A program made the position numbers and the translations under genes. A model generated the notes under the pieces. That model did not search any database. It saw only the letters and a program-made list of their open reading frames with translations, and was not told the origin of the DNA. From the NCBI GenBank assembly GCA_038062895.1, contig JBBTWJ010000003.1, positions 114,448-178,447 on the forward strand: 64,000 nt of DNA. The letters run 5' to 3'. This document shows positions 5,176-36,321 of this stretch, one piece after another (positions within the stretch are counted from its first letter, which is position 1; each line of letters opens with the position of its first letter). The DNA is from Patescibacteria group bacterium. Its GTDB lineage: Bacteria > Patescibacteriota > Microgenomatia > UBA10105 > UBA927.

Positions 5176-5640
5176 TTATTCGATGTGGACTATCTTGTAA
5201 AGGATTTTACCCGCCGGTGCCTCTACTTCCACGCTATCTCCGGGCTTTTTCCCCATGAGGGCTTTACCCAGAGGAGACTCGTGGGAAATTTTCTTTTCCT
5301 TGGGATCTGCTTCCCACTCTCCTACTACGGTAAACATATCTTTCTTCCCGTTAACGTGAAGGGTGACTTTGCAGCCCACATCCACCTGTGTTTTACCGTG
5401 GCTCGTAACGACTTTGGCGCTATGAAGAATATCCTCAAGCTCGGCAATCCTACCATCTATGAACGCTAAATCCTGCTTGGCTGCTGCGTATTCACTGTTT
5501 TCCGAAAGATCCCCGAGGCTTCGGGCGTCAGAAAGCCGCGCCACAGCTACAGGACGCTTCGTTTTTACCAGCTCATCATACTCGGCTTTGAGTTCGTCGA
5601 GTCCTTCTTTGGTAAGCATCATTTTGTGATGTGGGTCCAT
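5176..5640 (-). CDS. greA: transcription elongation factor GreA
   Basis: LTKEGLDELKAEYDEL coiled-coil N-terminus and a C-terminal FKBP-like domain; the true start may be the internal MM at about 5619. Confidence 0.85.
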   Translation of the reverse strand: MDPHHKMMLTKEGLDELKAEYDELVKTKRPVAVARLSDARSLGDLSENSEYAAAKQDLAFIDGRIAELEDILHSAKVVTSHGKTQVDVGCKVTLHVNGKKDMFTVVGEWEADPKEKKISHESPLGKALMGKKPGDSVEVEAPAGKILYKIVHIE

Positions 5641-5743: not shown

Positions 5744-5817
5744 GCCGCCATCGTCTAGTGGCCTAGGACGGTTGATTCTCAATCAACAAACCGAGGGTTC
5801 GAATCCCTCTGGCGGCA
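5744..5817 (+). tRNA. tRNA-Glu (anticodon CTC)
   Basis: Cloverleaf with acceptor GCCGCCA/TGGCGGC, D-loop GTCTAGTGGCCTAGGAC, anticodon loop TTCTCAA and T-arm GGGTTCGAATCCC; no encoded CCA. Confidence 0.8.
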
Positions 5818-5908
5818 CTGAAGGGGTCCCCTGCACCAGTGATAAGCAGGGTGCAGAGCCACGTACTGAATTTTATTCTAGTACTGTGGCGACTCCCCTA
5901 CGCGCTAC

Positions 5909-7459
5909 TTAATTCAGGAGACCTAATTTGGCAAGACGCGATCTGATAGCGCCATTTTTTCTCTCGAATGTTTTAGACAAATCGCCCGTCGACCAACCTT
6001 TTGTATATAGATTCTTCAATTTCTCATCTTGTTCTTTGTCCCAAGGTCGGTAAGCGTTCGGATGTACTTCTCTAATTTTATCAAAACCCGTTCCACCATC
6101 GCTTTTCCCACCGCATCGGGCAATGAACTGCTTATGCATTGCCGCTATTTCCTCCCTTCCCATTTTAGTAAATGTATCGACTGTAGCCACCGACTGTGCT
6201 CTGAACGCCCCATCTTTGGCGACGATATCCGGATGCACCTGAAATGCGCGTTCGTTCCATCCGAGAATGTAGAGATCGGAAAGCCGCCGGATGCGCGAGA
6301 GCGCAACATATCCCTGACCAAATTCAAAAACGCCCGAGAGATCCACGACCGCCTTTTCCAATGTCATTCCTTGACTCTTATGTACTGTGATAGCCCAGGC
6401 CAGACGAAGCGGTAGCTGGGTAATCTGCGCCCGAATGGTACCGTTTTCTTCGACCGACCAATCCATGGGTTCAACGGTAATCTGTCGCCCGTTGCGTACC
6501 GTGACGATAGGATAGCCTTCCTCTTCATCAAATTCTCTAATCACCCCAAGCGTGCCGTTGACAAATCCTTCTTTGGGACTATTTTTCGTGAACATGACTG
6601 TGGCGCCAACTTTCAGAAGAAGCGTTTCAGGCGAAAGACACCCTTTTTTCAGGGCAGCTACCAACGCATCAGGACCTTGCGCGGACATGGGGAAACCACG
6701 CGGCTCGTCCGGAAGCTTCGCGAGCACCTCATCGTTGATGCGATCTACGTCTACGTTATGCGTGAATAGTTTCGGCGCGTTTTTCGGTACGGCTTGCGAA
6801 TGGGTTTTTCTCGCTTCAATCTGATGCAAGTGATCGATAGTGAACGCATTGCGCCGGATTGCTGAAAGTACGCCCAAAAAATCACGGTCGTCCTGTCGGT
6901 ATTGTTCGGTAAGGTAGCATACGGTTGGATTTGCCCCAATCCACGCAGAAGAATCATACGCGAATCGCGCTAATGATTTTTCAATGAGCGTGGCTTGTAC
7001 ACTTTGTTCTGTTTCTTTTTTTACCACTGGCGGCAGTTGAAAAAAATCACCGGAAAAAACTACCTGCATACCGCCAAACGGTTCCGGATGCTGTGTAATC
7101 TTACGAACTACCGCGTCAACCATGGAGAGCGTCTCGGGATTGAGCATGGATACTTCTTCGATGATAAGAACATTAGCCCGACGGACGCGCTTGGTAATAT
7201 ATTGACTGGATGCTATTTTTTGAAGATCGTGTTGAGAGAGCGTCGTTTTTATCCCTATCCCGCTCCATGAATGGATCGTCATCCCGCCGATATGGGTGGC
7301 CGCGATACCAGTTGAGGCCGTTATTGCCGGTTCAATACCCCGACCACGCAAATACGCTACATACTCGTTGATCGCATAGGTCTTGCCGCTTCCCGGCTCC
7401 CCGGTCAAAAAAACATTAGCGCCGGTTTTGAGTATGGCAAGTGCTTGAGATTGCGTCAT
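5909..7459 (-). CDS. PIF1/RecD-family ATP-dependent DNA helicase with a C-terminal HTH-like tail
   Basis: Walker A GEPGSGKT, AAA_30/UvrD_C_2-type layout, SF1B motifs. Confidence 0.75.
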   Translation of the reverse strand: MTQSQALAILKTGANVFLTGEPGSGKTYAINEYVAYLRGRGIEPAITASTGIAATHIGGMTIHSWSGIGIKTTLSQHDLQKIASSQYITKRVRRANVLIIEEVSMLNPETLSMVDAVVRKITQHPEPFGGMQVVFSGDFFQLPPVVKKETEQSVQATLIEKSLARFAYDSSAWIGANPTVCYLTEQYRQDDRDFLGVLSAIRRNAFTIDHLHQIEARKTHSQAVPKNAPKLFTHNVDVDRINDEVLAKLPDEPRGFPMSAQGPDALVAALKKGCLSPETLLLKVGATVMFTKNSPKEGFVNGTLGVIREFDEEEGYPIVTVRNGRQITVEPMDWSVEENGTIRAQITQLPLRLAWAITVHKSQGMTLEKAVVDLSGVFEFGQGYVALSRIRRLSDLYILGWNERAFQVHPDIVAKDGAFRAQSVATVDTFTKMGREEIAAMHKQFIARCGGKSDGGTGFDKIREVHPNAYRPWDKEQDEKLKNLYTKGWSTGDLSKTFERKNGAIRSRLAKLGLLN

Positions 7460-8499
7460 TTATTGTTTCTCTTTAACAATTTTTTCGCCAAGCGGTCAAA
7501 ATCTGATACGTAGTTTTTGTCCTGTATTTTTTTATATTTTTCATACTCAGCAAGGGCAAGAGTTTCTGCTACTTCATGGCTGATTCTTCCGGCGTCACCT
7601 AGAATTTGTCGCTCGTTAAATTTCAGAAAGGCGTTCAATCGTGATACCCAGTCCTTCATATACATGATAATCCCACGCTTTGCTTGCATTTCTGCATAGT
7701 CGAGGTACATAGTCACAATTCTGTTTAAGTGGTCAAGTTCTCTTTCATTCAAATAGTTTTTGGCGATCACGACATCTGACTCTCGAATGGTACCCTTTGG
7801 AGAATTTTTCCAAACAGTGAGCCCCATATATGACTTGGTACTATCAGCTCTTTCGTGTACTATCTCTGAGGCAGTTTTACCGGTGATGGCAAAGTGGAGT
7901 TTGTTTTGCACTGTTGCAAAAAATTGTTTGGTAATTTCTTCATCGGAATCATAATCAGCGCTGCACTGAGCGTAAATATCGGTAATTTTTTGATACATGC
8001 GCCTTTCGCTTGACCGTATATCTCGTATTCGTGCAAGCTGTTCCTCAAAATAATCCTTTCCAAAAATATTGTATGGGTCTTTTAGTTTCTCGTCATTCAT
8101 TGTAAATCCCTTGATGATATATTCTTTCAATCTTTCCGTCGCCCATATTCTAAATAGAGTCGCCTGCCGACTACTCACTCGATAACCAACAGAAAGAATA
8201 GCGTCAAGGTTGTAAAATTCCACATCTCTGGTAACCAGACGTTTCCCTTCATTTTGAACTTGTGCAATTTTTGCACTCGTTGAATTTTTGTCTAACTCGC
8301 CTTCCTGAAAAATGTTTTGAAGATGTTTGGTAACTACGCTTCTCTCCACACCAAAAAGATCGGAGATTTTTGCTTGCGTCAACCACACGGTTTCATCGCG
8401 CAAGAAAATCTCAACTTTTACCTGACCGTTTGGGGTAGTGTAAAGGAGAAACTCCGTAAAGCTATTATTTGGAACGATTTTTTTGTTGTTTTTTTTCAT
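7456..8499 (-). CDS. RhuM-family protein (DNA-binding protein typically clustered with restriction-modification loci)
   Basis: Strong match to the RhuM core (DLFGVERSVVTKHLQNIFQEGEL ... LSVGYRVSSRQATLFRIWATERLKEY); its start overlaps the helicase stop by 4 bp. Confidence 0.75.
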   Translation of the reverse strand: MKKNNKKIVPNNSFTEFLLYTTPNGQVKVEIFLRDETVWLTQAKISDLFGVERSVVTKHLQNIFQEGELDKNSTSAKIAQVQNEGKRLVTRDVEFYNLDAILSVGYRVSSRQATLFRIWATERLKEYIIKGFTMNDEKLKDPYNIFGKDYFEEQLARIRDIRSSERRMYQKITDIYAQCSADYDSDEEITKQFFATVQNKLHFAITGKTASEIVHERADSTKSYMGLTVWKNSPKGTIRESDVVIAKNYLNERELDHLNRIVTMYLDYAEMQAKRGIIMYMKDWVSRLNAFLKFNERQILGDAGRISHEVAETLALAEYEKYKKIQDKNYVSDFDRLAKKLLKRNNK

Positions 8500-8827
8500 A
8501 ACATAACATTACATCGAAAATAACCCGAAAGTCAATCGCTCAATATGTCCAGTTTAAAAAAATTCATCAGGGTAAAACGCTTGAAGAAGCTATGGATGAA
8601 TTATTTGGGACCACCAAAATTGGTGAGGGCATTGGAATGTTTGTGATATTTACGAACGGCACGGCATTCGCCCTCGCCCGTTTTCTTCACGAAGATATCT
8701 ATAGTAAATAGTAATGAAGTAAGCTAAACACAGGCACTCAAACTCATTCGATTAAAATTCAAATTGGATACTACAAAAAGAAGAGGTGCGAACCTAATTC
8801 ACCCGAAGGGTAGCCTAAACAAAACAA

Positions 8828-21517: not shown

Positions 21518-24130
21518 TTATCCAACACTTCCCTCCATTTGTAATTGAATAAGTCTATTTAATTCGACGGCGTACTCGAGCGGGAGTTCTTTGACGATGG
21601 GCTCGATAAATCCATTAACAATCATGGACTCTGCCTGTGCTTTGCCAATCCCGCGGCTTTCAAGATAAAATAGTTGTTCATCCCCGATTTTAGAAACTCT
21701 CGCCTCATGCTCGATCGACACATCCTGCTCATCTATCTTCATCGTGGGATAGGTATCGGAGCGCGAAGCAGCATCGAGCAGTAATGCGTCACAAACGACT
21801 TTACTTTTGCTGTTGGTGGCACCCGGGATTACTTGTACCAGCCCCCGGTACGACGTTCTCCCCCCGCCCCGGCTTATGGATTTGGAAATAATCTGTGATG
21901 TGGTTTCCGGCGCCAAGTGCACTACTTTCCCTCCTGCATCTTGATGTTGCCCTGCTCCGGCATAAGCAATCGAAAGGATTTCTCCGCGTGCTTTTCTCCC
22001 CACTAAATAGACGCTCGGGTACTTCATGGTGAGTTTGGAATTATGAACGATGAAGCCTTGTGAAATGAAATTGCCTGTCCCCTCAACTTCGATATCCCAT
22101 GTAGGAATCAGATCGGAGGACTGCTTAGAAACTACAACTGGCACTATCTCAACAGTGTTATGTAATGTAATGCTTGAGCGCCCGACGAGTCTATGCATTT
22201 GAAGTTTTTTTGTCGATCGCCCTAGTATTTGTTTACGCATACCCGTACTCACGAAGTTCGCAAATCTATAATCTATCGGAAAATCCAGCCTATACGCGCC
22301 ATGCGCGATAGATGACACACCTAAAATACGAACTCGTTTTGGTTGGCTGAATTCGACATGAAGTCGAGATGTAATTCCGAGCGTTACGAGAAGTGACGCA
22401 ATATCTTCCAAAAGCGGTCGATTGACCGATTTAATATGAAATCGGTCATCAATGTTCCCGTCGGCATCCAAGTAGCCTGCGATAAATGATAACCGTTGCG
22501 ACTGGGGAAGCGACCACACCCATTGAGGAACACGCTTAGTCGCTGCGGTACCTAAAAATCCGTTAAGGCGAAAAAGCTCTGTAATCTCTTTACTGCTCCA
22601 AGCGAGATGGTGACCATCGGATCGTTCGGTAGGTGCAATATTCGTCAACGTCCGCATACAACTCATTAAGCGTTCCCTTGCTCTATCTTGGCGAGGCGTC
22701 GAGAAACCAACTTTCGCCCAACGAATAACTCCTTTTGTTTTTCCAAAGCGCAAATCTATGTTGCCATCGCCAATCCAATACCCGAATAACCACATCATTG
22801 CATCATCTGTATGTGCTATTTTTATCATCCTGGCTGCTCTTATACGTGTCATTTTCAATGATGAAGCATACTGATTATATGATTCAAACGTTGTAATCAA
22901 CCCGGGCATCTTCAGTGAATATTGAGCACCATAATCAATAGAAACACGGGGAACAATTGCTTTTTTTAGCTGATCAGCACGGACGTATGCCAGTCGGTAC
23001 CGTCCGAGCTTCTTGGGTTTTTGGACATCGTATATATATGAATAAAATGGATGGTTAGCAGTAACTCTTAGTGTTCGTTTTCCGATGGAAACCGTATGTA
23101 CAGGTTGACGACCGGAAAAACGCTTCGCTTTTACTTTTTGGAAGCAGAGTATTCCTTTTTGGTCATCATAGGAGAGAACTTTATCACCTAACGCAAGAGA
23201 CTCAATTGTTTTCACTCCTTCGGGAGTAGTCACTGTCGAACCCTCTGCTAAACAACCTAAATTTCCGTCGACCCATTCCATGACGCCTTCCTCTTCTACC
23301 CGCGCGCGCTTGGTGACCAGGTTATAGACATTGGTACTCCAATTTTGGATGGTGGTGTAACGGACCCGCGCTCCCTTTTTCACAATGATCTCAACCACTG
23401 CGCTATGGAGTGAATCTGTCGTGTAAATGGGAGCGGTGCATCCTTCGACGTAATGGACGAAGCTCCCCTCCTCGGCAATGATGAGGGTGCGCTCGAACTG
23501 TCCCATGTTGGCCGCATTGATACGGAAATACGCCTGAAGCGGCAAGTCCACGCGTACGCCTTTGGGCACATACACAAATGAACCTCCGGACCAAACTGCG
23601 CTATTGAGCGCAGCAAATTTATTATCTCCGGGAGGAATAATGGTGCCAAAGTACTGTTTCACAATCTCCGGATGCTCACGAAGTCCCGAATCCATATCCA
23701 AAAAAATGACCCCTTTTTTGCTAAGCGTTTCATGAATACTTTTGTACACAACTTCCGACTCATACTGTGCGCTGACCCCCGAAAGAAATTTCTTTTCCGC
23801 CTCCGGAATGCCAATCCGGTCATACGTATCACGGATTTCTACCGGAAGATCCTCCCAGCGCGATGCACGTTTTTCCGTCGGATTAATATAGTAGTAGATA
23901 TCATCAAAATTGATAGTCGTGAGATCTCCCCCCCACGCGGGTAAGGGTTTGCGGAAAAATTGATCAAGCGCTTTCAGCCGGAACTGCCGCATCCAGGGAG
24001 GGTCATTTTTCCGTACGCTCAATTCTTCAACAACGGTGCGGTCGAGCCCTTTTTTTGATTTAAATACGTAATTTTCCGGCTTGCGGAAACCATATTTGTA
24101 ACTACCGTTTACTGGTTTAAATTGGAGCAT
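21518..24130 (-). CDS. sufB: FeS-cluster assembly protein SufB interrupted by a 405-aa intein
   Basis: Exteins total 465 aa and read as canonical SufB (...EWVDGNLG / SKLTMKYPSVYL...); the inserted segment starts with Cys and ends with His-Asn, followed by Ser. Confidence 0.9.
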   Translation of the reverse strand: MLQFKPVNGSYKYGFRKPENYVFKSKKGLDRTVVEELSVRKNDPPWMRQFRLKALDQFFRKPLPAWGGDLTTINFDDIYYYINPTEKRASRWEDLPVEIRDTYDRIGIPEAEKKFLSGVSAQYESEVVYKSIHETLSKKGVIFLDMDSGLREHPEIVKQYFGTIIPPGDNKFAALNSAVWSGGSFVYVPKGVRVDLPLQAYFRINAANMGQFERTLIIAEEGSFVHYVEGCTAPIYTTDSLHSAVVEIIVKKGARVRYTTIQNWSTNVYNLVTKRARVEEEGVMEWVDGNLGCLAEGSTVTTPEGVKTIESLALGDKVLSYDDQKGILCFQKVKAKRFSGRQPVHTVSIGKRTLRVTANHPFYSYIYDVQKPKKLGRYRLAYVRADQLKKAIVPRVSIDYGAQYSLKMPGLITTFESYNQYASSLKMTRIRAARMIKIAHTDDAMMWLFGYWIGDGNIDLRFGKTKGVIRWAKVGFSTPRQDRARERLMSCMRTLTNIAPTERSDGHHLAWSSKEITELFRLNGFLGTAATKRVPQWVWSLPQSQRLSFIAGYLDADGNIDDRFHIKSVNRPLLEDIASLLVTLGITSRLHVEFSQPKRVRILGVSSIAHGAYRLDFPIDYRFANFVSTGMRKQILGRSTKKLQMHRLVGRSSITLHNTVEIVPVVVSKQSSDLIPTWDIEVEGTGNFISQGFIVHNSKLTMKYPSVYLVGRKARGEILSIAYAGAGQHQDAGGKVVHLAPETTSQIISKSISRGGGRTSYRGLVQVIPGATNSKSKVVCDALLLDAASRSDTYPTMKIDEQDVSIEHEARVSKIGDEQLFYLESRGIGKAQAESMIVNGFIEPIVKELPLEYAVELNRLIQLQMEGSVG
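22040..23254 (-). mobile_element. intein with a LAGLIDADG homing-endonuclease domain inside sufB (residues 293-697)
   Basis: N-terminal CLAEGSTV splicing block, two LAGLIDADG motifs (LFGYWIGDGN and IAGYLDADGN), C-terminal ...FIVHN followed by +1 Ser. Confidence 0.85.
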
Positions 24131-28508: not shown

Positions 28509-29342
28509 TTATTGGGGCGAAAAGGAGCGATCCTGCGGCGACTTGAGGTAATTTCCGGGTGTCGAAACGCGCTGACCGGACTTTTGTTCGAGCTCCCGCT
28601 TGGCGTTTCCGGCAATAGTTCCTCCTTGGCGGGCTGCCTGCTTATTTTTGGGGAAACCCTGCGAATTTTTTCCTCTGGTAATTCTGGTCGTTGATGCTTC
28701 GCCGAGCATGGTAAAAATAAGTTCCAAGTCGTCCATGTGATCGCGAAGATTTTCACGAGCGAGCCCTTTGAATTTTTTATATTCGGAAGGAGTCATGCCA
28801 AATGTGGCTTGAGATATCTCCGCGGTAAGAATAGCATACTCGCGGTCTCCACCAACGTCACGATGCTTCCATTCATCGGTGAGCTCCTCACGAATCGCGA
28901 TCCCGCGAATCCGCTTCTCAATCCAGCTGTCGGAATATCCTTTAGCTTTATAAAGTGCTCTCGTTCGTTTTGTCGCCAATTCCGGATCTTCAATTTCTTG
29001 TACCCGCTCATACCCTACGCGAGCAAGCCAACGCTTAAACGGTTCGGCTTTAGGGGAAGGAATAGATTGGATAATACGAAAGACGCCTTCCGTATTTGCA
29101 CAATCTGTTTCATATTTTTTACCGTCAGAAGCTTCTAATTTCAGTTGTCTACAAATTGTAGACAACTCAATTCCCTCACTTGCATGAACTCTGGTTTTCA
29201 TTGCATTCCAATATACACGGGGTTTATTACTATCCGTCAAAGCTTCTACTACATCTACAACAGAAAAATACCATTCATTCTGATAAATAATCTTTCGAAC
29301 TCTCTTGCCTTTAAAAATAGCAACCTTCGTCGATATGTCCAT
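28509..29342 (-). CDS. Bro-N domain / DinD-like (DNA-damage-inducible protein D family) protein
   Basis: N-terminal Bro-N-like block (IFKGKRVRKIIYQNEWYFSVVDVVEAL) and a C-terminal KilA-C-like region. Confidence 0.5.
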   Translation of the reverse strand: MDISTKVAIFKGKRVRKIIYQNEWYFSVVDVVEALTDSNKPRVYWNAMKTRVHASEGIELSTICRQLKLEASDGKKYETDCANTEGVFRIIQSIPSPKAEPFKRWLARVGYERVQEIEDPELATKRTRALYKAKGYSDSWIEKRIRGIAIREELTDEWKHRDVGGDREYAILTAEISQATFGMTPSEYKKFKGLARENLRDHMDDLELIFTMLGEASTTRITRGKNSQGFPKNKQAARQGGTIAGNAKRELEQKSGQRVSTPGNYLKSPQDRSFSPQ

Positions 29343-29426: not shown

Positions 29427-29957
29427 ATGGCAGATGCTCCCGAAATGTGTCCGAAGTGCGGTGCTCCCCTAGGGGACATCGTCGAAACAGCCTCCGGCAA
29501 AAAACTCCAACGGTGTACGAAGGGATCCTGGAATGCTCAAACCAAAAAGAATGAAGGGTGTGACTATGTAAAATGGCTCATGGTCGAACCAAAACCATTG
29601 GATGAAAAATGCCCCAAGTGCGGATCGCCGCTCGTCCTGCAGGTTACCCGTTTTGGTAAAAAAATGAAAAAATGTTCGATGGGCGGCTGGGATAAAGAAA
29701 CCAAAAAACCCACCGGATGTGATTACATAGAATGGATCAACGGTACCACGGAGCCACTCAAGGAAGCGTGTCCGGAATGCGGCAAACCTTTAGTGCTCTT
29801 CACCACAAGCGCCGGAAAGCGAATGATCAAATGCTCAACCGCAGGATGGGATAAAGCGGCACGCCAAGCGACCGGCTGCGCGTACGTGCAATGGCTCAAG
29901 CCCGGAGAAATGGTCAACAATGGTGAAGAAGGCCTCCCCCCCGATCCGGATCAATAA
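29427..29957 (+). CDS. protein made of three tandem C4 zinc-ribbon repeats (topoisomerase-type zinc-finger-like)
   Basis: Three ~55-aa units, each with CP(K/E)CG-x-PL ... C(T/S)xGxW ... GC(D/A)Y(V/I)xWL. Confidence 0.6.
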   Translation: MADAPEMCPKCGAPLGDIVETASGKKLQRCTKGSWNAQTKKNEGCDYVKWLMVEPKPLDEKCPKCGSPLVLQVTRFGKKMKKCSMGGWDKETKKPTGCDYIEWINGTTEPLKEACPECGKPLVLFTTSAGKRMIKCSTAGWDKAARQATGCAYVQWLKPGEMVNNGEEGLPPDPDQ

Positions 29958-30029
29958 AATAATTTCTTGCCATATAAAAAACTCACACTCTTGCGTTTAT
30001 AACGCAATCTATACTACTCTTAAATAGAG

Positions 30030-30764
30030 ATGACAAAAAGATCGCATAGAAAACCTGCAAAGAAAGCTGCTCATACGACGCGTCATAAAACAGTGCGGTA
30101 CCGCCTCACTCTCTACAGCCTGACCATGGCTATCGGTGCCCTCATATATATAGGAACCCCGATGGTGCTCAAGACGCCGCCCCCTTGTGCAAACTCAAAA
30201 AGCTGTACCAGTGACCTCGTGGAAAAAATTGAGAATGGCGCGGCAGGCGTATTTGAAGGTCGAAGCGTGGTCGTGCCGAACATTAACCTTGCCTTGGATA
30301 AGGCGCATCCAACCGTGCTTGGCACAGCTATTCCCTCCGGGGACAAGCATATTTATGTAGACCTTTCCACGCAAATTTTGTACGCGTATGAAGGAACGTC
30401 TAAAATCTTTCAAACATTTGTTGCAACAGGAAGATGGGGCAAAACCCCTACCGGGAACTTTAACATCTGGACGAAATTACGGTCGACCCGCATGTCCGGC
30501 GGGTCGGGAGCGGACTACTACAACCTACCCAATGTGCCTTTTGTGATGTATTTTTATGGGGACTTCGGTCTTCACGGCGCATATTGGCATGACAATTTTG
30601 GGTATACGATGAGTCACGGATGTGTGAACATGCGTCAGATTGATGCAGAAGTCATCTTTAACTGGTCTGACGGGCCAACGAAAGGACAACTTGGGACACC
30701 AGTGTCGACCTGTGATTCGTTTACTGAACCGAATATCTGTACGCAAGAAAATCCTGTGAAATAA
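30030..30764 (+). CDS. L,D-transpeptidase (YkuD domain) with an N-terminal anchor
   Basis: Catalytic SHGCVNM and the preceding conserved beta-sandwich region. Confidence 0.8.
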   Translation: MTKRSHRKPAKKAAHTTRHKTVRYRLTLYSLTMAIGALIYIGTPMVLKTPPPCANSKSCTSDLVEKIENGAAGVFEGRSVVVPNINLALDKAHPTVLGTAIPSGDKHIYVDLSTQILYAYEGTSKIFQTFVATGRWGKTPTGNFNIWTKLRSTRMSGGSGADYYNLPNVPFVMYFYGDFGLHGAYWHDNFGYTMSHGCVNMRQIDAEVIFNWSDGPTKGQLGTPVSTCDSFTEPNICTQENPVK

Positions 30765-30770
30765 CATGCT

Positions 30771-31421
30771 ATGACGATAACGAAAAAAATGCGTATCGAA
30801 ATCTTTATTTGTATTTGCGCTCTCATCGCAGTGAGCGGCTATTCCGTGTTGCGCGTCAAATATTCAAATTCCGGACACCTTTCCAGAGTTATAATAGCCG
30901 GAGAGACTCTTCGTACAACACTTCCCGTCGTCACGAATCCAATTGTAAAGGTAGATACGGCATCACAACCTACTCCGGACGGCAAGAAAAAATTACTGAT
31001 GGAGGCAACGCATAAAAAAGATACTTCCACGTACGTATTTACGACAAGCGATGGGTCAGGCGGAAACATAGAGCCTTTGTTTACCACGACGGTTCAGGCA
31101 TCTGCCTCGGCTACAGAAGGCCTGAATATACCATTTAATACCTGGTCTCCGGATAATAAATATTTGTTCATTCAAACAAATGACGGGGATGCCTGGGTAT
31201 TTAATGCGACAGGAGAAGAAATAGTCACTGGTCAGCGCTATTTTGATGTACGAGATTTATTTAATGCCGCCGGGAAAAAGGATACCTATAAGGTAACCAC
31301 GGGATGGGCTTCTGAAACTCTCCTCATCGTCAACACGCTTGCTCCGGACAAAACAAAAGGAAGCTCCTACTGGTTCGAGGTTCCCTCAAAAGCTATCATC
31401 CAACTCTCTTCACAGTTCTAA
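30771..31421 (+). CDS. hypothetical secreted/membrane-anchored protein
   Basis: Signal/anchor-like N-terminus; no recognisable domain. Confidence 0.45.
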   Translation: MTITKKMRIEIFICICALIAVSGYSVLRVKYSNSGHLSRVIIAGETLRTTLPVVTNPIVKVDTASQPTPDGKKKLLMEATHKKDTSTYVFTTSDGSGGNIEPLFTTTVQASASATEGLNIPFNTWSPDNKYLFIQTNDGDAWVFNATGEEIVTGQRYFDVRDLFNAAGKKDTYKVTTGWASETLLIVNTLAPDKTKGSSYWFEVPSKAIIQLSSQF

Positions 31422-31494
31422 AACCTAAAAAAATCATTATGGCTTTCTTACCGATAGAATTTCAGGTGCGTCGGGAATATAATTGCACTAGACC

Positions 31495-32370
31495 ATGATA
31501 GGAATCATATTTGCACTGCTTTGCGCTATATTTATAGGATTTTCCCAGATATCTCTTCGCAAAAGTTATAAGAAATTTCCTCCTTCTATCGCTTTTTTGT
31601 TTGACTCAATTTTTGGTTTATTGATTTGGGTTCCACTTGCCTTCTTTATGGGAATCTCTGGAACCGTAAACTGGGGACGTGCGATATTTTTTGCGATTGT
31701 TTCAGCCATCCTTTCTGAAGCCATTGTTTTTTACGCCTTATCACACGGAACATTGACTGTTACCGCTACAGTACTCGCAACATATCCAGTTTATACAGTT
31801 ATCTTTTCAAGACTGTTTAATAATGAAGTCCTCTCTGTTCAGATAACACTCTTTGTGATTCTAGCGATCTTGGGAAGCATAATCGCCAGCTTACCTGACA
31901 AAATCAAAACATCTGAAATAAAATTAAGCAAAGGAATCATGTGGCCATTCATCGCAGCCGTCTGCATTGGACTTTCAGATACTATTTCAAAGGGTTATAT
32001 TAATAGGTCGGGAAACTTTAGTTTCTTATTTTCACTAGGGTTTGTCCAGATTCCCATAGCGTTGGCTTACTTAAAAATTGAGAAACAATCCCTAATCAAA
32101 TCAATTGAAGGTGTCACAAAACGACTAAAGGAATATAAATTCGCATTACTAGGTGGTTTGTTCAATATTGTTGGAACTGGATTTCTGTGGTTAAGTTTTT
32201 CCTACGCTCCGGCTTCAATAGTCTCACCCATAACGGGGACTAGCGGGGCATTAACTGTAATCCTATCAAGACTCTTACTGAAAGAGAAAATCACGAAAAT
32301 AAAATATTTGGGAATTATATTTGCTTTTATTGGAATAATAGGGATAACCGTTTTGCGGACAAATTATTAG
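31495..32370 (+). CDS. DMT/EamA-family transporter
   Basis: Ten-TM pattern with duplicated EamA halves. Confidence 0.75.
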   Translation: MIGIIFALLCAIFIGFSQISLRKSYKKFPPSIAFLFDSIFGLLIWVPLAFFMGISGTVNWGRAIFFAIVSAILSEAIVFYALSHGTLTVTATVLATYPVYTVIFSRLFNNEVLSVQITLFVILAILGSIIASLPDKIKTSEIKLSKGIMWPFIAAVCIGLSDTISKGYINRSGNFSFLFSLGFVQIPIALAYLKIEKQSLIKSIEGVTKRLKEYKFALLGGLFNIVGTGFLWLSFSYAPASIVSPITGTSGALTVILSRLLLKEKITKIKYLGIIFAFIGIIGITVLRTNY

Positions 32371-32391
32371 AGACTCCGTCAATGGAACTGA

Positions 32392-33063
32392 CTAGTCTTC
32401 TATCACTCGACCGCCGAGGTCAGCAAAATCAGATTGCAGGGGCTTAGCATATATTATAGATCCTTTTCCATGAAAAATCTCAATAGTCCGCCCCAGGATC
32501 GCTGCCAATCTCATAGAGCCTGATCCGTTGGCCTCATCCTCCGGTATACCCCAATCCGGTGCAAATGTTCGTGCTCGGATGAGTCCCCTATGTTCATCTA
32601 TCCATGCCCAAATCAATGAGTGTTTAATGGTTTTAGTTTCTGATTCACTAAGACGCTCAACTTCGATCGGATTTTTCCGTTGTACATATTTCCAAGCCGG
32701 CAGCGTTGTTAGAGCCGCGCGGATCCATGTTTTGCCATCATCCATCCACGTTTTAATTGTACCTCCTTCACAAACAAGGGAATCAATTGGTTTATCGCCC
32801 GTTTTGTTCATGAACCACGCTGCGCCGACCATCGCATGACCCGCAAAGGGAACTTCGCTCCTAGGATTAAAGATGCTCACGCTACCGACGCTTACGTCAT
32901 TAATAAATACAGATTCACTGTAACCAAGATCCGTGGCGATCCGTTGACGATCATTTAAAACGATTTTCTTCCCTTCATCTTGTATGATTCCAACGGAATT
33001 GCCAAATTTTCCAACTTGGTTCACAAATACACGGAGGGTATGTATATTTAGGTGATTAGCCAT
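32392..33063 (-). CDS. PhzF-family isomerase-like protein (short)
   Basis: N-terminal LRVFVNQVGKFGNSVGII and C-terminal EANGSGSMRLAAIL blocks typical of PhzF. Confidence 0.65.
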   Translation of the reverse strand: MANHLNIHTLRVFVNQVGKFGNSVGIIQDEGKKIVLNDRQRIATDLGYSESVFINDVSVGSVSIFNPRSEVPFAGHAMVGAAWFMNKTGDKPIDSLVCEGGTIKTWMDDGKTWIRAALTTLPAWKYVQRKNPIEVERLSESETKTIKHSLIWAWIDEHRGLIRARTFAPDWGIPEDEANGSGSMRLAAILGRTIEIFHGKGSIIYAKPLQSDFADLGGRVIED

Positions 33064-33139
33064 ACTTAGTTATTATCTTGCGAATCTCATTGGTCTCGAA
33101 CCATTTAATCCGATAATTGCTACTCGAACAAGTTTGAGC

Positions 33140-33964
33140 TCATTTCAACTTACCTTCTATAACTTTTTTAAATAACCAGTCTATAAATCCTAAGTCTTCA
33201 AATATGTAATCAGCCATTAAAAATGGTTGAGCTACTCGCTCACCTGAGTGTGCCCTAAAGGGATGAATAATATTATTACGTATGCCATCACGCATTTCCT
33301 CCTCATAGTCCGTAAAATCAATTCCAGGATTATCTTTTTTAAGATATTCTCCTATTAAATCTATGACTTTATTTCTAGCATCTTTTCCTGAAAAACCATT
33401 TTTGAATTTTAAATGCTCAACTATAGCCTCATAAGCAATAAATGTATTATTGTAAGTTTCCTCTGCAAACAAGGAACTTGTATTTAATAAAATATAAGCC
33501 TTATAGAGGCACGCGCCAGCACGAACAAATAAATTATTTTTGTAGTCAAATTTCGTAACCAATTTTTTAACGTCATCTTCATCTATATCACGCTTATAGA
33601 AATGATATCCTCCATCGTTTGTATATTCGCAATATTTGTAGACTAATTGCATGCAGTCATCACGTGTAGGAAATTTATCCACCTTTTTTGTTTTATAGAA
33701 TGGTCCAAATCTTCGTACAACTGGTGTTAGTGCTCCCTCAACTAAATGCTCGCTTTCTAACTGAGCATGTCTCAATGCAGTAATAAATGGTATTTCTGAT
33801 CGAGTTACCCACGACATTTCTTGTTCAAGCCAATCGTCACTCTTTTTGATTTCAGTAATAATACCAGCACTATGAAATTGAGCCAGATAATAACAGTTTT
33901 TGACTTTAAAGATTCCTTCCAAGTGTGAATGTTTATTACTAAGTGGGGTAATTTTAATTAACAT
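33140..33964 (-). CDS. hypothetical protein in an AT-rich islet
   Basis: ORF with no recognisable motif; much lower GC than the flanks. Confidence 0.45.
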   Translation of the reverse strand: MLIKITPLSNKHSHLEGIFKVKNCYYLAQFHSAGIITEIKKSDDWLEQEMSWVTRSEIPFITALRHAQLESEHLVEGALTPVVRRFGPFYKTKKVDKFPTRDDCMQLVYKYCEYTNDGGYHFYKRDIDEDDVKKLVTKFDYKNNLFVRAGACLYKAYILLNTSSLFAEETYNNTFIAYEAIVEHLKFKNGFSGKDARNKVIDLIGEYLKKDNPGIDFTDYEEEMRDGIRNNIIHPFRAHSGERVAQPFLMADYIFEDLGFIDWLFKKVIEGKLK

Positions 33965-34092
33965 ATTTTAGACCTCGATCATGAAAGTCTAGTTACATGT
34001 CTGCCAATCTTATCTGAGTGGGCCAGTCAAGGCCCGTTTAGTCATTAAAGAATAAGAACGGGAAACCCAAACCTCGAATCATTTAACGGTAG

Positions 34093-34824
34093 CTATACTA
34101 TTCGTTTCCAACGCTTAAACGCTTTAACATCAGAAGAGTTTAATTTAAACCACTCACCTTTAATACATTTAGAAGAAAATCTTTTGTGCCAATAATCTTC
34201 TATGTGTACCATGTCATCTGTTTTTATTGTGTGTATGTAATCGAAATATTCTATCTGGTTTAAATTATGATCATTACGCCGTTGGTCTAAATTTTTGGCT
34301 CTACCAATTCTATAATGTTTGCCTCGTTTACCTAAATACACAAATCCGCTCTCTATCTTGTCATCCTCAGAAGTTTCATTTTCATTTTCATATTTTCCCA
34401 AAATTGAATTGCAAATATTTACTATATCATTGTACCCTCGTCGGCCTTCAACATATTCGAGAATTGTTAATGGCAAACCATCCTTAGTCTGACCAAGTCG
34501 ATTATAAAAAGTTGCTGAGGCGGGGAATCTAGAATTTTGACGGCGTTTAAAATCTAACTCATCTCTACTTGGCCATTTCCCTATTTCACGAATTAATTTG
34601 ATAAATTCGTCACATAAATCTTTCTTAGAGTATTTTGTTTTATCAAAATCTTGGGGAGTTAATCCGGCCTCACGCTGAATATCGGTAATTTTTGTCCAAT
34701 AGGTAATCCAATCCCATTTTGGTATTCTCAATTCTTCTCTTATTATTTTTTCACTTGGAGTACGTCCACCATTCTCCTTAGCCCATTTTCGGATTTCCTT
34801 TAAAATATCTTCTTTTGTCAACAT
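34093..34824 (-). CDS. N-terminal repeat plus C-terminal T5orf172 (GIY-YIG-like) domain protein
   Basis: Two N-terminal repeats (LKEIRKWAKENGGRTPS / FIKLIREIGKWPSRDEL) reminiscent of homing-endonuclease-associated repeats; C-terminus GFVYLGKRGKHYRIGRAKNL...GEWFKL matches the T5orf172 pattern. Confidence 0.5.
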   Translation of the reverse strand: MLTKEDILKEIRKWAKENGGRTPSEKIIREELRIPKWDWITYWTKITDIQREAGLTPQDFDKTKYSKKDLCDEFIKLIREIGKWPSRDELDFKRRQNSRFPASATFYNRLGQTKDGLPLTILEYVEGRRGYNDIVNICNSILGKYENENETSEDDKIESGFVYLGKRGKHYRIGRAKNLDQRRNDHNLNQIEYFDYIHTIKTDDMVHIEDYWHKRFSSKCIKGEWFKLNSSDVKAFKRWKRIV

Positions 34825-34916
34825 ATTTTTAATACATACGTCTAATTATAATTTAAAGCGTCCAATCGTGCTGCAGTGCTAGTGCCCTTTCGAGTATTTT
34901 CGAATCGATTATAGTC

Positions 34917-35189
34917 TTAAGCGTTCTTGAGCGCTATTTTATCATCATTTATCAACAATTCTTTCTTAATCCGTGACCACGTCTTTAATTGAGCCTCTCG
35001 TTTCATTGCTTCTGCCCGGGATATAAAACTTTCCTGATAAACAAGCTCAAAGGAATTGAAGAAACGTACATATTTAGCTGATTTACTTCCTTTAGTGCGA
35101 TGCTCTTCCAATCGTCGGATGAGATTGTTCGTTTGACCAGTATAAAAGGTATTCGAAGAGGTAAGGAGAATATAGACGGAATAAGACAT
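34917..35189 (-). CDS. small GIY-YIG nuclease-family protein (YhbQ/UPF0213-like)
   Basis: VYILLTSSNTFYTGQTNNLIRRLEEH GIY-YIG core. Confidence 0.75.
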   Translation of the reverse strand: MSYSVYILLTSSNTFYTGQTNNLIRRLEEHRTKGSKSAKYVRFFNSFELVYQESFISRAEAMKREAQLKTWSRIKKELLINDDKIALKNA

Positions 35190-35300
35190 ATCAGTTCATC
35201 CCTCGACTCTGGTTCGACTTCGCTCACCATTCGCTCGAGAAGTGCGACATTGATATTTCTGCCCCTCGATTACACTCGGGGTCTTCGCTTCGCTTCGAGC

Positions 35301-35369
35301 TGGGAGACCTGGATTCGAACCAAGATAAACGGATTCAGAGTCCGTTGTCCGACCATTAGACGATCTCCC
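35301..35369 (-). tRNA. tRNA-Gln (anticodon CTG), slightly short D-arm
   Basis: Minus strand GGGAGAT...ACGGA-CTCTGAA-TCCGT...CTTGGTTCGAATCCAGG-TCTCCCA; the T-arm is identical to E. coli tRNA-Gln. Confidence 0.6.
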
Positions 35370-35421
35370 AAAATTTAATCTACGAACCTACAAATGAAAA
35401 ATCTACAAATAACATACAAAT

Positions 35422-36282
35422 TCACTCCGGTAGGGTGATTATACCAGCTTTTGAGCGGGTGATTAAGCCGTCGGCCTCCAAACCCTGAAGGATGGATTGT
35501 AAAAAAGAGGCGGGTTTCGCGTATTTCTTTTTAAACTCTTTGATAAGGTTGCTTTCCTTTGCTTCCCCTTCCCGCAGGCGGTCAATAATGCGGCCGCGGT
35601 AAAATCGATTGGAGTCACGGAAAGGAATGGAAGTCCTTCGACTCACTTTGGTCAAAGACCCTGAGCGAGCGCGGACGAGTCGAAGGGCTCCGTAGTCCAT
35701 GAGGGCCTGGTGCCATTCCCAGGATTTACCGGGGGGTATCAGTTGACGGGCAATATCTTCAATTTCCTTTTCCAAGGCCCGGCCCTGCCTCGCCGGCAGG
35801 CGGGCTTGTGCCTGTTTGGGAAAAAAGAAGTGAGTGATGATCTGACGGATGTTTGTATCGACGAGCGGGACTTCCTTCTCGTAAGCGAATACTAATAGTG
35901 CTCGAGCAGTGTATGTACCCAGGCCAGGAAGCTTATTTAATAGTTCACAGTTCATAGGAAAATGACCGTTATATTGATCACAAATAATTTTTGCAGTCCT
36001 GTGGAGATACAATGCGCGGCGGTTATACCCCATCCCCTTCCAGACGCGAAGGACATCAGCGGGAGTAGCTTGAGCAAGATCACAAACCGTCGGAAATCGT
36101 TCGATAAACTCCGCATACTTTGGGAGGACCCGAAGTACTTGCGTCTGCTGGAGCATGACTTCTGACACCATGATCCGGTAGGGATCGCGCGTCCGGCGCC
36201 ATGGGAGGTCACGGCGGTGCGTTTTCCACCACAAAAAAATCTTTTGATGGAAAGAGATAATTTGTTTTTTGGATAGCTTCAT
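35422..36282 (-). CDS. HhH-GPD family DNA glycosylase (MutY/Nth-like, no FeS cysteines) with a C-terminal extension
   Basis: LPWRRTRDPYRIMVSEVMLQQTQV and the helix-hairpin-helix LPGLGTYTARALL. Confidence 0.75.
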   Translation of the reverse strand: MKLSKKQIISFHQKIFLWWKTHRRDLPWRRTRDPYRIMVSEVMLQQTQVLRVLPKYAEFIERFPTVCDLAQATPADVLRVWKGMGYNRRALYLHRTAKIICDQYNGHFPMNCELLNKLPGLGTYTARALLVFAYEKEVPLVDTNIRQIITHFFFPKQAQARLPARQGRALEKEIEDIARQLIPPGKSWEWHQALMDYGALRLVRARSGSLTKVSRRTSIPFRDSNRFYRGRIIDRLREGEAKESNLIKEFKKKYAKPASFLQSILQGLEADGLITRSKAGIITLPE

Positions 36283-36321
36283 GATGCGTCGTTATTATAC
36301 TCTGGATTCCAACGCTCGAGG

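Follow-up and report, generated by a model that had tools for sequence, protein, structure and literature searches.

Domains of the HEPN type have been described as carrying a conserved motif where helix 3 ends, the arginine of which is followed directly by a polar residue, together with conserved acidic residues in helix 2 and an insert between helices 2 and 3 (Anantharaman et al., PMC3710099), and ApeA (HEPN_Apea, PF18739) is an anti-phage system in which a HEPN protein is encoded by a single gene (bioRxiv 10.64898/2026.03.20.713152). Experiments have established the reverse transcriptase DRT4 as an anti-phage system encoded by one gene (PMC12783706). T5orf172 genes in phages are regarded as homing endonuclease genes and lie at the boundaries of exchanged DNA (PMC10448857). 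These systems are the closest described counterparts of the genes or slot in a short AT-rich stretch beside a tRNA-Gln gene in a Gottesmanbacteria-like member of the Patescibacteria, an uncultured groundwater bacterium represented by a metagenome-assembled genome; "the window" below is the whole 64,000-nucleotide piece of contig JBBTWJ010000003.1 that was analysed. The same locus is present on Hainich H41 metagenome contigs. The reading that we favour, with moderate confidence and partly on the basis of a predicted structure, is that a hotspot following tRNA-Gln gathers small selfish or conflict genes, and that its gene for a protein of 274 amino acids (274 aa) encodes a putative mobile one-protein HEPN RNase effector of the ApeA/Abi-like kind.

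Modules of the AT-rich stretch and the DRT4 slot

The GC content is 0.32–0.35 in every 500-bp window from 33000 to 34999, against 0.43–0.52 in the flanks, and the 2-kb window with the lowest GC content of the whole 64 kb starts at 33101 (0.342 against a mean of 0.466, standard deviation 0.031, z about −4). A preliminary description of this DNA had placed an AT-rich islet with three minus-strand genes at 33100–35200, ending at tRNA-Gln; the islet is confirmed as the compositional minimum, the three open reading frames (ORFs) are found exactly where they had been placed, and the tRNA is recovered by both ARAGORN and Rfam. Relative to 60 non-overlapping window ORFs (mean GC content 0.469, standard deviation 0.041; mean GC content at third codon positions, GC3, 0.478, standard deviation 0.068), the 274-aa and 243-aa genes are the two extreme outliers in both measures. 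Because the effect is strongest at synonymous and third codon positions, the amino-acid content of the proteins is not its cause. The features of the stretch, from the core side inwards, are as follows.

35422–36282, minus strand: gene for an HhH-GPD (EndoIII/MutY-like) glycosylase (Pfam HhH-GPD, E = 2.1e-19), the conserved core-side border
35299–35370, minus strand: tRNA-Gln with anticodon CTG (ARAGORN; Rfam 35300–35370, 59.5 bits)
34917–35189, minus strand: 90-aa ORF (ORF list, Pfam GIY-YIG); GC 0.374, GC3 0.374, intermediate
34093–34824, minus strand: 243-aa ORF (ORF list); GC 0.336, GC3 0.262, z −3.2
34037–34902, minus strand: T5orf172 module of ~870 bp, made up of the 243-aa gene with ~80 nt upstream and ~56 nt downstream
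33140–33964, minus strand: 274-aa ORF (ORF list); GC 0.327, GC3 0.244, z −3.4
33144–34064, minus strand: module of the HEPN-like gene, made up of the 274-aa gene with ~100 nt upstream
32392–33063, minus strand: PhzF-like gene (Pfam PhzC-PhzF, E = 3.8e-19) of native-like GC content, the right-hand border of the variable slot

The 3′ end of tRNA-Gln points toward the islet. The 274-aa gene is separated by 128 nt from the T5orf172 gene and by 76 nt from PhzF, with no small ORF in either gap. Promoter and terminator counts in the stretch are not above those of shuffled sequence, and the tRNA was the sole RNA match in an Rfam scan.

The neighbourhood was compared in ~50 related genomes, mostly Gottesmanbacteria, which were found via the HhH-GPD gene adjoining the tRNA. 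A block running from p350 and GltX to HhH-GPD is conserved in these relatives, and tRNA-Gln(CTG) lies close to HhH-GPD, usually just downstream, in most of 44 related loci. Beyond the tRNA the gene content varies between related genomes; in three of them (L017, L034 and L052) the genes that follow tRNA-Gln are homologues of window genes at 19–28 kb. Homologues of the 243-aa, 274-aa, PhzF and EamA genes were found within 8 kb in none of the ~50 relatives sharing the neighbourhood. Because the genes after the tRNA differ and the relatives are without the 243-aa and 274-aa genes, the neighbourhood is a variable hotspot and its AT-rich genes are accessory, and synteny at tRNA-Gln shows that the two are not conserved core genes.

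The borders of the modules emerge from comparison with other contigs; for lateral transfer and for exchange of the slot, each comparison draws on a single short contig, L099 (5.2 kb) and L004. L099 (Logan SRR22387768, a Patescibacteria-like contig) contains, in order, a T5orf172 gene, a gene for a 518-aa reverse transcriptase, PhzF and EamA genes. Its positions 55–920 match window positions 34902–34037 at 90.6% nucleotide identity (blastn), and its T5orf172 protein is 94% identical in amino acids to the 243-aa protein, whereas the adjacent PhzF genes of L099 and the window are 74% identical in nucleotides and 70% in amino acids. Counted at third codon positions alone, the identity is 0.857 in the T5orf172 gene against 0.571 in PhzF. 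By this discordance in nucleotide identity the T5orf172 unit is far younger than its surroundings and was transferred or converted laterally, apparently in a recent event. Together with the absence of the genes from relatives, the discordant divergence upholds the earlier suggestion that the 274-aa and 243-aa genes were acquired horizontally.

In L004, positions 7900–8821 match window positions 34064–33144 at 82% nucleotide identity, with 85% identity between the proteins, and in that contig the 274-family unit lies inserted with RuvX on one side and YceG on the other. Conservation of the 100 nt that precede the 274-aa gene extends solely to this closest homologue. The homology blocks of the T5orf172 and 274-aa genes abut at ~34037–34064. 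Homologues of the 90-aa gene follow tRNA-Gln, amid housekeeping genes, in L029 (66% identity) and L025 (55%). Judged by these borders and homologues, the stretch is a set of three independent modules with apparently separate histories and not the single islet that had been described.

The slot between the T5orf172 unit and PhzF, which holds the 274-aa gene in the window, is occupied in L099 by a full-length Drt4 gene (L099:989–2545; PADLOC E = 1.3e-111; GC content 0.307). This is one example of a known defence gene in the same flanked position of a related genome, and among the arguments from context for a defence role of the 274-aa gene, this occupancy of the slot in the sister contig carries the most weight.

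The preliminary description had also counted the adjacency of a tRNA among the features typical of horizontally acquired defence or mobile cargo. No recombinase or integrase is encoded among the ORFs of 30000–36300, the tRNA 3′ end (22 nt, up to 3 mismatches) occurs once in the window, and a repeat search was also empty. A classical tRNA-integrated genomic island was rejected, since the integrase is absent and the tRNA 3′ end is not repeated.

Further observations concern the extent and variability of the region. In a close relative (L018:9314–10621), a gene for a 332-aa Fic-domain protein with the motif HPFDDGNGRVGR lies between two copies of tRNA-Gln(CTG) in opposite orientation; it is another insertion at the same tRNA. 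The contigs of the closest relatives (L013, L018 and L029) stop ~0.2–0.8 kb from tRNA-Gln, which suggests assembly breaks from strain-level variation at the hotspot. The EamA transporter gene of the window (31495–32370, plus strand) is likewise AT-rich (GC content 0.368, z −2.4), and L099 has two EamA genes at the corresponding place, one of them with a GC content of 0.356. Because EamA is AT-rich and absent at the locus in the ~50 relatives, the variable region may extend beyond the islet, out to ~30–31.5 kb. A 154-aa gene (5176–5640, minus strand; GreA-like by the look of its L018 homologue) adjoins tRNA-Glu (5744–5818) in the window, 30 kb away from the position directly beside HhH-GPD/tRNA-Gln that its homologues occupy in many relatives; its displacement seems to indicate rearrangement of the ancestral neighbourhood.

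Fold, conservation and contexts of the 274-aa protein

The 274-aa protein has no match in Pfam, PADLOC (E up to 1), PHROGs, NCBIfam or the sequences of the PDB, and profiles of its family have none in the PDB. It is identical to a hypothetical protein from a metagenome-assembled genome labelled "Patescibacteria group bacterium". A word-indexed search returned 48 clusters, all named as hypothetical proteins, from Roizman-, Shapiro- and Woesebacteria and other Patescibacteria, and without a Pfam domain, and a profile search of 1.84 billion representatives returned 46 proteins at E up to 1e-3 and 13 at E up to 1e-10. By these searches the family appears to be small, unannotated and mainly confined to Microgenomates-group Patescibacteria. 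Its remote relatives are ~17–21% identical, some of them 350–430 aa long, and keep an R-x4-H-P motif; ten remote relatives were found to have no Pfam domain.

AlphaFold2, given 42 sequences, yields a confident model (predicted local distance difference test, pLDDT, 90.3; predicted template modelling score, pTM, 0.90) that consists of an N-terminal alpha/beta domain and a C-terminal helical domain.

33539–33964, minus strand: N-terminal alpha/beta domain, residues 1–142, no fold match
33143–33538, minus strand: C-terminal HEPN-like four-helix domain, residues 143–274
33263–33280, minus strand: RNNIIH motif, R229–H234 (from the translation and family conservation)

In a fold search with this model the four-helix HEPN fold was the top structural match; the model has a four-helix up-and-down bundle with a helical insert between helices 2 and 3. 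No match was obtained for the N-terminal domain, for which a role in sensing or regulation is proposed. The protein had been described as lacking any recognisable motif, a statement that is corrected by RNNIIH at residues 229–234, and structure prediction, which had been suggested as a check, yielded the C-terminal HEPN fold. R229 and H234 are invariant in 42 homologues, in which N230 is at least 90% conserved; in a set of 43 sequences that includes relatives at ~17–21% identity, R229, H234 and P235 are at least 90% conserved. The motif spans the junction between the third core helix (217–233) and the loop that follows. R148, K155 and E168 are also invariant; E168 and E179 (at least 90% conserved) lie in helix 2 (167–189), where the exact Ex3[KR] spacing was not seen. 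In the position of its motif, the Asn after the Arg, the conserved acidic residues of helix 2 and the insert between helices 2 and 3, the protein fits the published description of HEPN domains (PMC3710099).

Sequence profiles give little more. Two remote members have sub-threshold matches, to HEPN_Apea (E = 0.02) and HEPN_Cthe2314 (E = 0.3), one remote member has a sub-threshold match to the Cas13-ApeA model of PADLOC (E = 0.0033), and hhalign of the family profile against two single HEPN-motif neighbour proteins (L121 and L102) gave a probability of <1%. With structure and motif in agreement with a HEPN domain and sequence profiles without a significant match, the protein is best described as a putative HEPN family of a kind not previously described, with a novel predicted N-terminal domain.

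Seven distinct genomic contexts of the 274-aa family, that of the window included, were read.

Window: T5orf172 unit upstream, PhzF downstream
L001–L003: serine recombinase and XRE regulator; two genes of unknown type directly upstream
L005/L006: serine recombinase, AAA_25 and a 1095-aa KAP NTPase
L007: IS110 transposase directly upstream; TraG/TrwB-like genes
L098: tyrosine integrase directly upstream; relaxase, DUF87 and ParA
L097: pPIWI-associated nuclease-like gene; radical SAM gene with a 4-nt overlap
L004: between the housekeeping genes RuvX and YceG

Hallmarks of mobile elements or defence are thus present in five of the seven contexts, and no partner gene is conserved across them. Two of these loci deserve separate mention. 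In the Roizmanbacteria contig L001 (7118–7996), a 4-nt gap separates the 274-family gene from that of a preceding 292-aa protein with weak nucleotidyltransferase-like matches (PAP_NTPase, E = 0.054; PADLOC PDC-S32, E = 4.9e-4), which may represent a pairing of HEPN and nucleotidyltransferase in the Roizmanbacteria lineage. In the Shapirobacteria contig L097 (1–2375), a pP_pnuc_1 gene is followed by a radical SAM (SPL-like) gene that overlaps the 274-family gene by 4 nt; this run of genes may be an operon of conflict genes.

The contexts bear on whether the protein is instead a toxin of the HEPN/MNT toxin–antitoxin type, or an addiction toxin, that stabilizes the mobile elements or islands carrying it and has no part in phage defence. 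The HEPN fold and motif would suit such a toxin, as would the frequent location of 274-family genes on integrative or conjugative elements and the weakly nucleotidyltransferase-like gene 4 nt upstream in L001. However, the absence of a partner over the seven contexts, the neighbours in the window (the T5orf172 gene and PhzF, with neither a small ORF nor an adjacent minimal nucleotidyltransferase) and the lone 274-family gene between RuvX and YceG in L004 all speak against it, and the fused N-terminal domain could provide regulation in cis; we regard this explanation as quite improbable.

A different explanation dispenses with conflict altogether, the protein being a non-nuclease HEPN-like helical protein or a lineage-specific housekeeping factor for RNA processing or regulation, with a low GC content that reflects fast evolution of an orphan gene. 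In its favour, the protein has no sequence match to any characterized family, some HEPN domains are non-catalytic binding domains (PMC3710099), and the context between RuvX and YceG is purely housekeeping. However, non-catalytic HEPN domains typically lose the Rx4–6H motif (PMC3710099), and here the Arg and His are nearly invariant down to ~17–21% identity. The distribution is sparse (46 among 1.84 billion representatives), the gene is missing at this locus in the ~50 relatives, five of the seven contexts are mobile or defence-like, and DRT4 occupies the same slot in L099. On this balance the explanation is unlikely.

The distribution of the two AT-rich genes is also informative. If the 243-aa T5orf172 protein and the 274-aa protein formed one two-gene system, with the three nuclease-type genes as one functional island, their adjacency, common direction and similar AT-richness would be explained, and HEPN-type neighbours do occur at a few other T5orf172-family loci (Hypoth_Ymh and Aga_HEPN among 82 neighbours). 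By tblastn, however, the six other contexts of the 274-aa family are without a T5orf172 homologue, and a 274-family gene is found at none of ~60 other T5orf172-family loci; in addition, L099 pairs the same T5orf172 gene with DRT4, and the two genes in the window have separate, abutting homology boundaries. Such a system is therefore very improbable, and it was rejected because the two genes are distributed independently.

According to the favoured hypothesis of a hotspot with a one-protein HEPN effector, the AT-rich stretch downstream of tRNA-Gln would be a small hotspot of laterally acquired genes in three independent modules. The GIY-YIG gene of the UPF0213 type would be an older, patchily conserved resident of the locus. 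The T5orf172 gene would have moved recently between lineages as a unit of ~870 bp, its repeats binding DNA and its C-terminal domain cutting it. The 274-aa gene would be single-gene cargo, in which the novel N-terminal alpha/beta domain may sense or regulate and the C-terminal HEPN domain, with its intact R-N-x-x-x-H site, may be an RNase that needs no metal and works as a homodimer, in the manner of other single-HEPN proteins. Cleavage of RNA would be set off by a trigger of some kind, and the gene would serve as a one-protein anti-phage or abortive-infection effector or, in a wider sense, as a toxin of conflict or exclusion that mobile elements carry. Nuclease and RNase activity, dimerization, a trigger and a defence phenotype are properties that we infer. 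The preliminary description had guessed at an Abi-like effector; the HEPN fold with its Rx4H motif and the occurrence of DRT4 in the same slot agree with that guess, with defence as a candidate function.

Several points weigh against this hypothesis. Searches of Pfam, NCBIfam, PADLOC and the PDB assign the window protein to no HEPN family by sequence profile, and R229 and H234 are matched to the catalytic residues of HEPN domains by motif and description, not by superposition. The sharing of the slot with DRT4 is seen on one 5.2-kb contig. Relatives of the 274-aa family were not found in a scan of IMG/VR viral contigs, in BFVD, or by tblastn in phage and plasmid records. PADLOC families hit among the 82 immediate neighbours of T5orf172-family genes number 63, against 70 among 82 distal genes, without a clear excess, in a crude comparison that reports families rather than members and in which many of the control matches are generic enzymes. 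To our knowledge, the biology of Patescibacteria phages is barely known, and this too counts on the negative side.

The T5orf172 gene, the GIY-YIG gene and other parts of the window

The 243-aa protein combines two known kinds of domain.

34492–34815, minus strand: two HNH_repeat units (PF18780, homing endonuclease associated repeat), residues ~4–111, 29.2 bits against a cutoff of 26
34108–34347, minus strand: T5orf172/MUG113 domain of the GIY-YIG superfamily, residues 160–239, with GFVYL...YRIG...R182...E209...GEWF

The C-terminal domain is matched in Pfam by MUG113 (46.2 bits, cutoff 22.3, E = 6.8e-12) and T5orf172 (33.4 bits, cutoff 20, E = 6.7e-8), in keeping with the architecture of two N-terminal homing-endonuclease-associated repeats and a C-terminal T5orf172 domain that had been proposed from the sequence; the label "HEARO-type" for the repeats was a misnomer for PF18780. 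In 33 homologues, G160, G174, R182, E209, Y211 and W212 do not vary, Y163 and Y171 are conserved to at least 90%, and the columns of the PF18780 repeats are conserved in the family alignment. The repeats are presumed to be the DNA-binding part.

The 243-aa family is populous and uniform: a word search gave 221 clusters and metagenome contigs gave at least 560 matches, every one ~242 aa long; where NCBI gives a name it is "GIY-YIG nuclease family protein", and the members are mostly from Patescibacteria. No phage copy of the family was found, a weak domain match apart, and no solved structure for it was found. The neighbours at the ~60 T5orf172-family loci are of many kinds, often housekeeping genes (such as those for ribonucleotide reductase, tRNA synthetases and metabolic enzymes), and include a few mobile or conflict genes: two integrases, Drt4, SoFic, Aga_HEPN, Hypoth_Ymh, PIN_2 and an LmuA-like/Mrr_cat protein. 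We do not claim that T5orf172-family genes are general markers of defence slots. Because of its architecture, copy number, insertion by conserved genes and discordant divergence in L099, the 243-aa gene is read as homing-endonuclease-like, and it fits a putative free-standing selfish gene of that kind.

A more ambitious version of the favoured hypothesis would make the 274-aa family a new HEPN system against phages that consists of one protein, has a novel sensor domain and occurs mainly in Patescibacteria, and the T5orf172 gene the driver or recombination anchor by which single-gene defence cassettes (HEPN and DRT4) are swapped at the tRNA-Gln hotspot. We hold this version to be distinctly doubtful; if true, it would mean nuclease-mediated shuffling of defence cassettes in ultra-small bacteria without CRISPR.

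Individual T5orf172-family loci have neighbours of their own. In L093 (3699–4853), a 384-aa Mrr_cat/LmuA-like protein (PADLOC LmuA, E = 3.9e-10) is encoded near the T5orf172-family gene, and in L100 (2976–4574) a 532-aa Schlafen-AlbA_2/HATPase_c_4 protein (PADLOC pAgo-associated, E = 4.4e-17) is encoded ~2.2 kb from it.

The 90-aa protein, which had been described as a small GIY-YIG protein, is confirmed as such by Pfam (GIY-YIG, E = 2.7e-15) and by PDB structures of UPF0213, which it matches over nearly its full length (1zg2, E = 1.1e-10, residues 1–81; 1ywl, E = 8.2e-8); it is by these matches evidently an ordinary stand-alone GIY-YIG protein of UPF0213 (YhbQ/YazA) type. The sequence upstream of the T5orf172 unit in L099 resembles the sequence that follows tRNA-Gln in L013 and L018, and for that reason L099 is apparently without the GIY-YIG gene. 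A UPF0213-like GIY-YIG gene lies immediately upstream of a T5orf172-family gene, as in the window, at three other loci (L111:4337–4576, L115:1369–1605 and L095:4235–4438), and within 1–3.5 kb of one at three more, a local excess of about three-fold in small numbers.

Other parts of the window also contain selfish or unusual genes. The 870-aa protein of the SufB/SufD family encoded at 21518–24130 (minus strand) has a Pfam LAGLIDADG_3 match between two SUFBD_core matches, and it probably holds an intein that carries a homing endonuclease, which would add a further selfish nuclease to the window. A 277-aa protein with a Bro-N domain, which is associated with phages and mobile elements, is encoded at 28509–29342 (minus strand), adjoining a gene (29427–29957, plus strand) for a 176-aa protein made up of three 159-nt tandem zinc-ribbon-like repeats; a Parcubacteria contig (L096) has a similar Bro-N gene near T5orf172-family and GIY-YIG genes. 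A 347-aa ORF at 7456–8499 (minus strand; GC content 0.388, z −2.0) is a second, weaker compositional outlier.

Significance and comparison with known systems

Patescibacteria make up a large share of bacterial diversity. Members of this group, also called the Candidate Phyla Radiation (CPR), are mostly without CRISPR-Cas and are considered to have few classical defences (PMC12455944). If the favoured hypothesis of a hotspot with a one-protein HEPN effector is true, the locus would offer a new candidate family of HEPN effectors whose N-terminal domain is novel, the protein being small enough at 274 aa for heterologous hosts, and a genuine DRT4 in a genome closely related to this one from the CPR. 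It would also offer a clean replacement of one cassette by another beside a recently transferred homing-endonuclease-like gene and, with it, integrase-free exchange of defence genes in streamlined genomes. If either the HEPN or the defence reading fails, the stretch is no more than a run of selfish and orphan genes of an ordinary sort. The T5orf172 and UPF0213 genes belong to known kinds and are not unusual among them, and none of these findings overturns current understanding.

The 90-aa protein resembles UPF0213 proteins (BH0048 and EF2693; YhbQ/YazA type) over nearly its full length and differs from them in nothing notable except the intermediate GC content of its gene. The 243-aa gene resembles the T5orf172 homing endonuclease genes of phages (ICP1 and T5-like) in having a T5orf172 domain at one terminus and DNA-binding repeats at the other, and in being free-standing, beside conserved genes and at the boundaries of exchanged DNA (PMC10448857). 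It differs from them in its chromosomal location in Patescibacteria, where homing is putative, and in its PF18780 repeats, which take the place of the CapR, DUF723 or DUF4397 zinc fingers.

DRT4 is, like the 274-aa gene, a single-gene AT-rich cassette, and it is found in the identical slot of L099. The proteins themselves are unrelated, one being a 518-aa reverse transcriptase and the other a 274-aa HEPN-like protein, and DRT4 is not in the window.

The 274-aa protein is not a member of ApeA, HepT/MNT, RnlA, AbiV or any PADLOC family. Membership of HEPN/MNT was rejected because there is no adjacent minimal nucleotidyltransferase gene, and membership of ApeA because there is no ApeA model match and the protein is 274 aa long against ~600 aa. 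The window protein has neither a PADLOC nor a Pfam match to ApeA, and its N-terminal domain has no detectable fold relative; the 274-aa family is, in addition, found mainly in Microgenomates-group Patescibacteria. The likeness to ApeA consists in an expected homodimer without a partner gene, and in the ApeA-type matches, below threshold, of two remote members of the family. With the HEPN toxins more widely (HepT/MNT, RnlA/LsoA, AbiV, the C-terminal domain of AbiA, and Csm6), the 274-aa model has the four-helix HEPN fold in common, and the protein shares with them an Rx4H motif where helix 3 ends, a polar residue that follows the Arg and the conserved acidic residues of helix 2.

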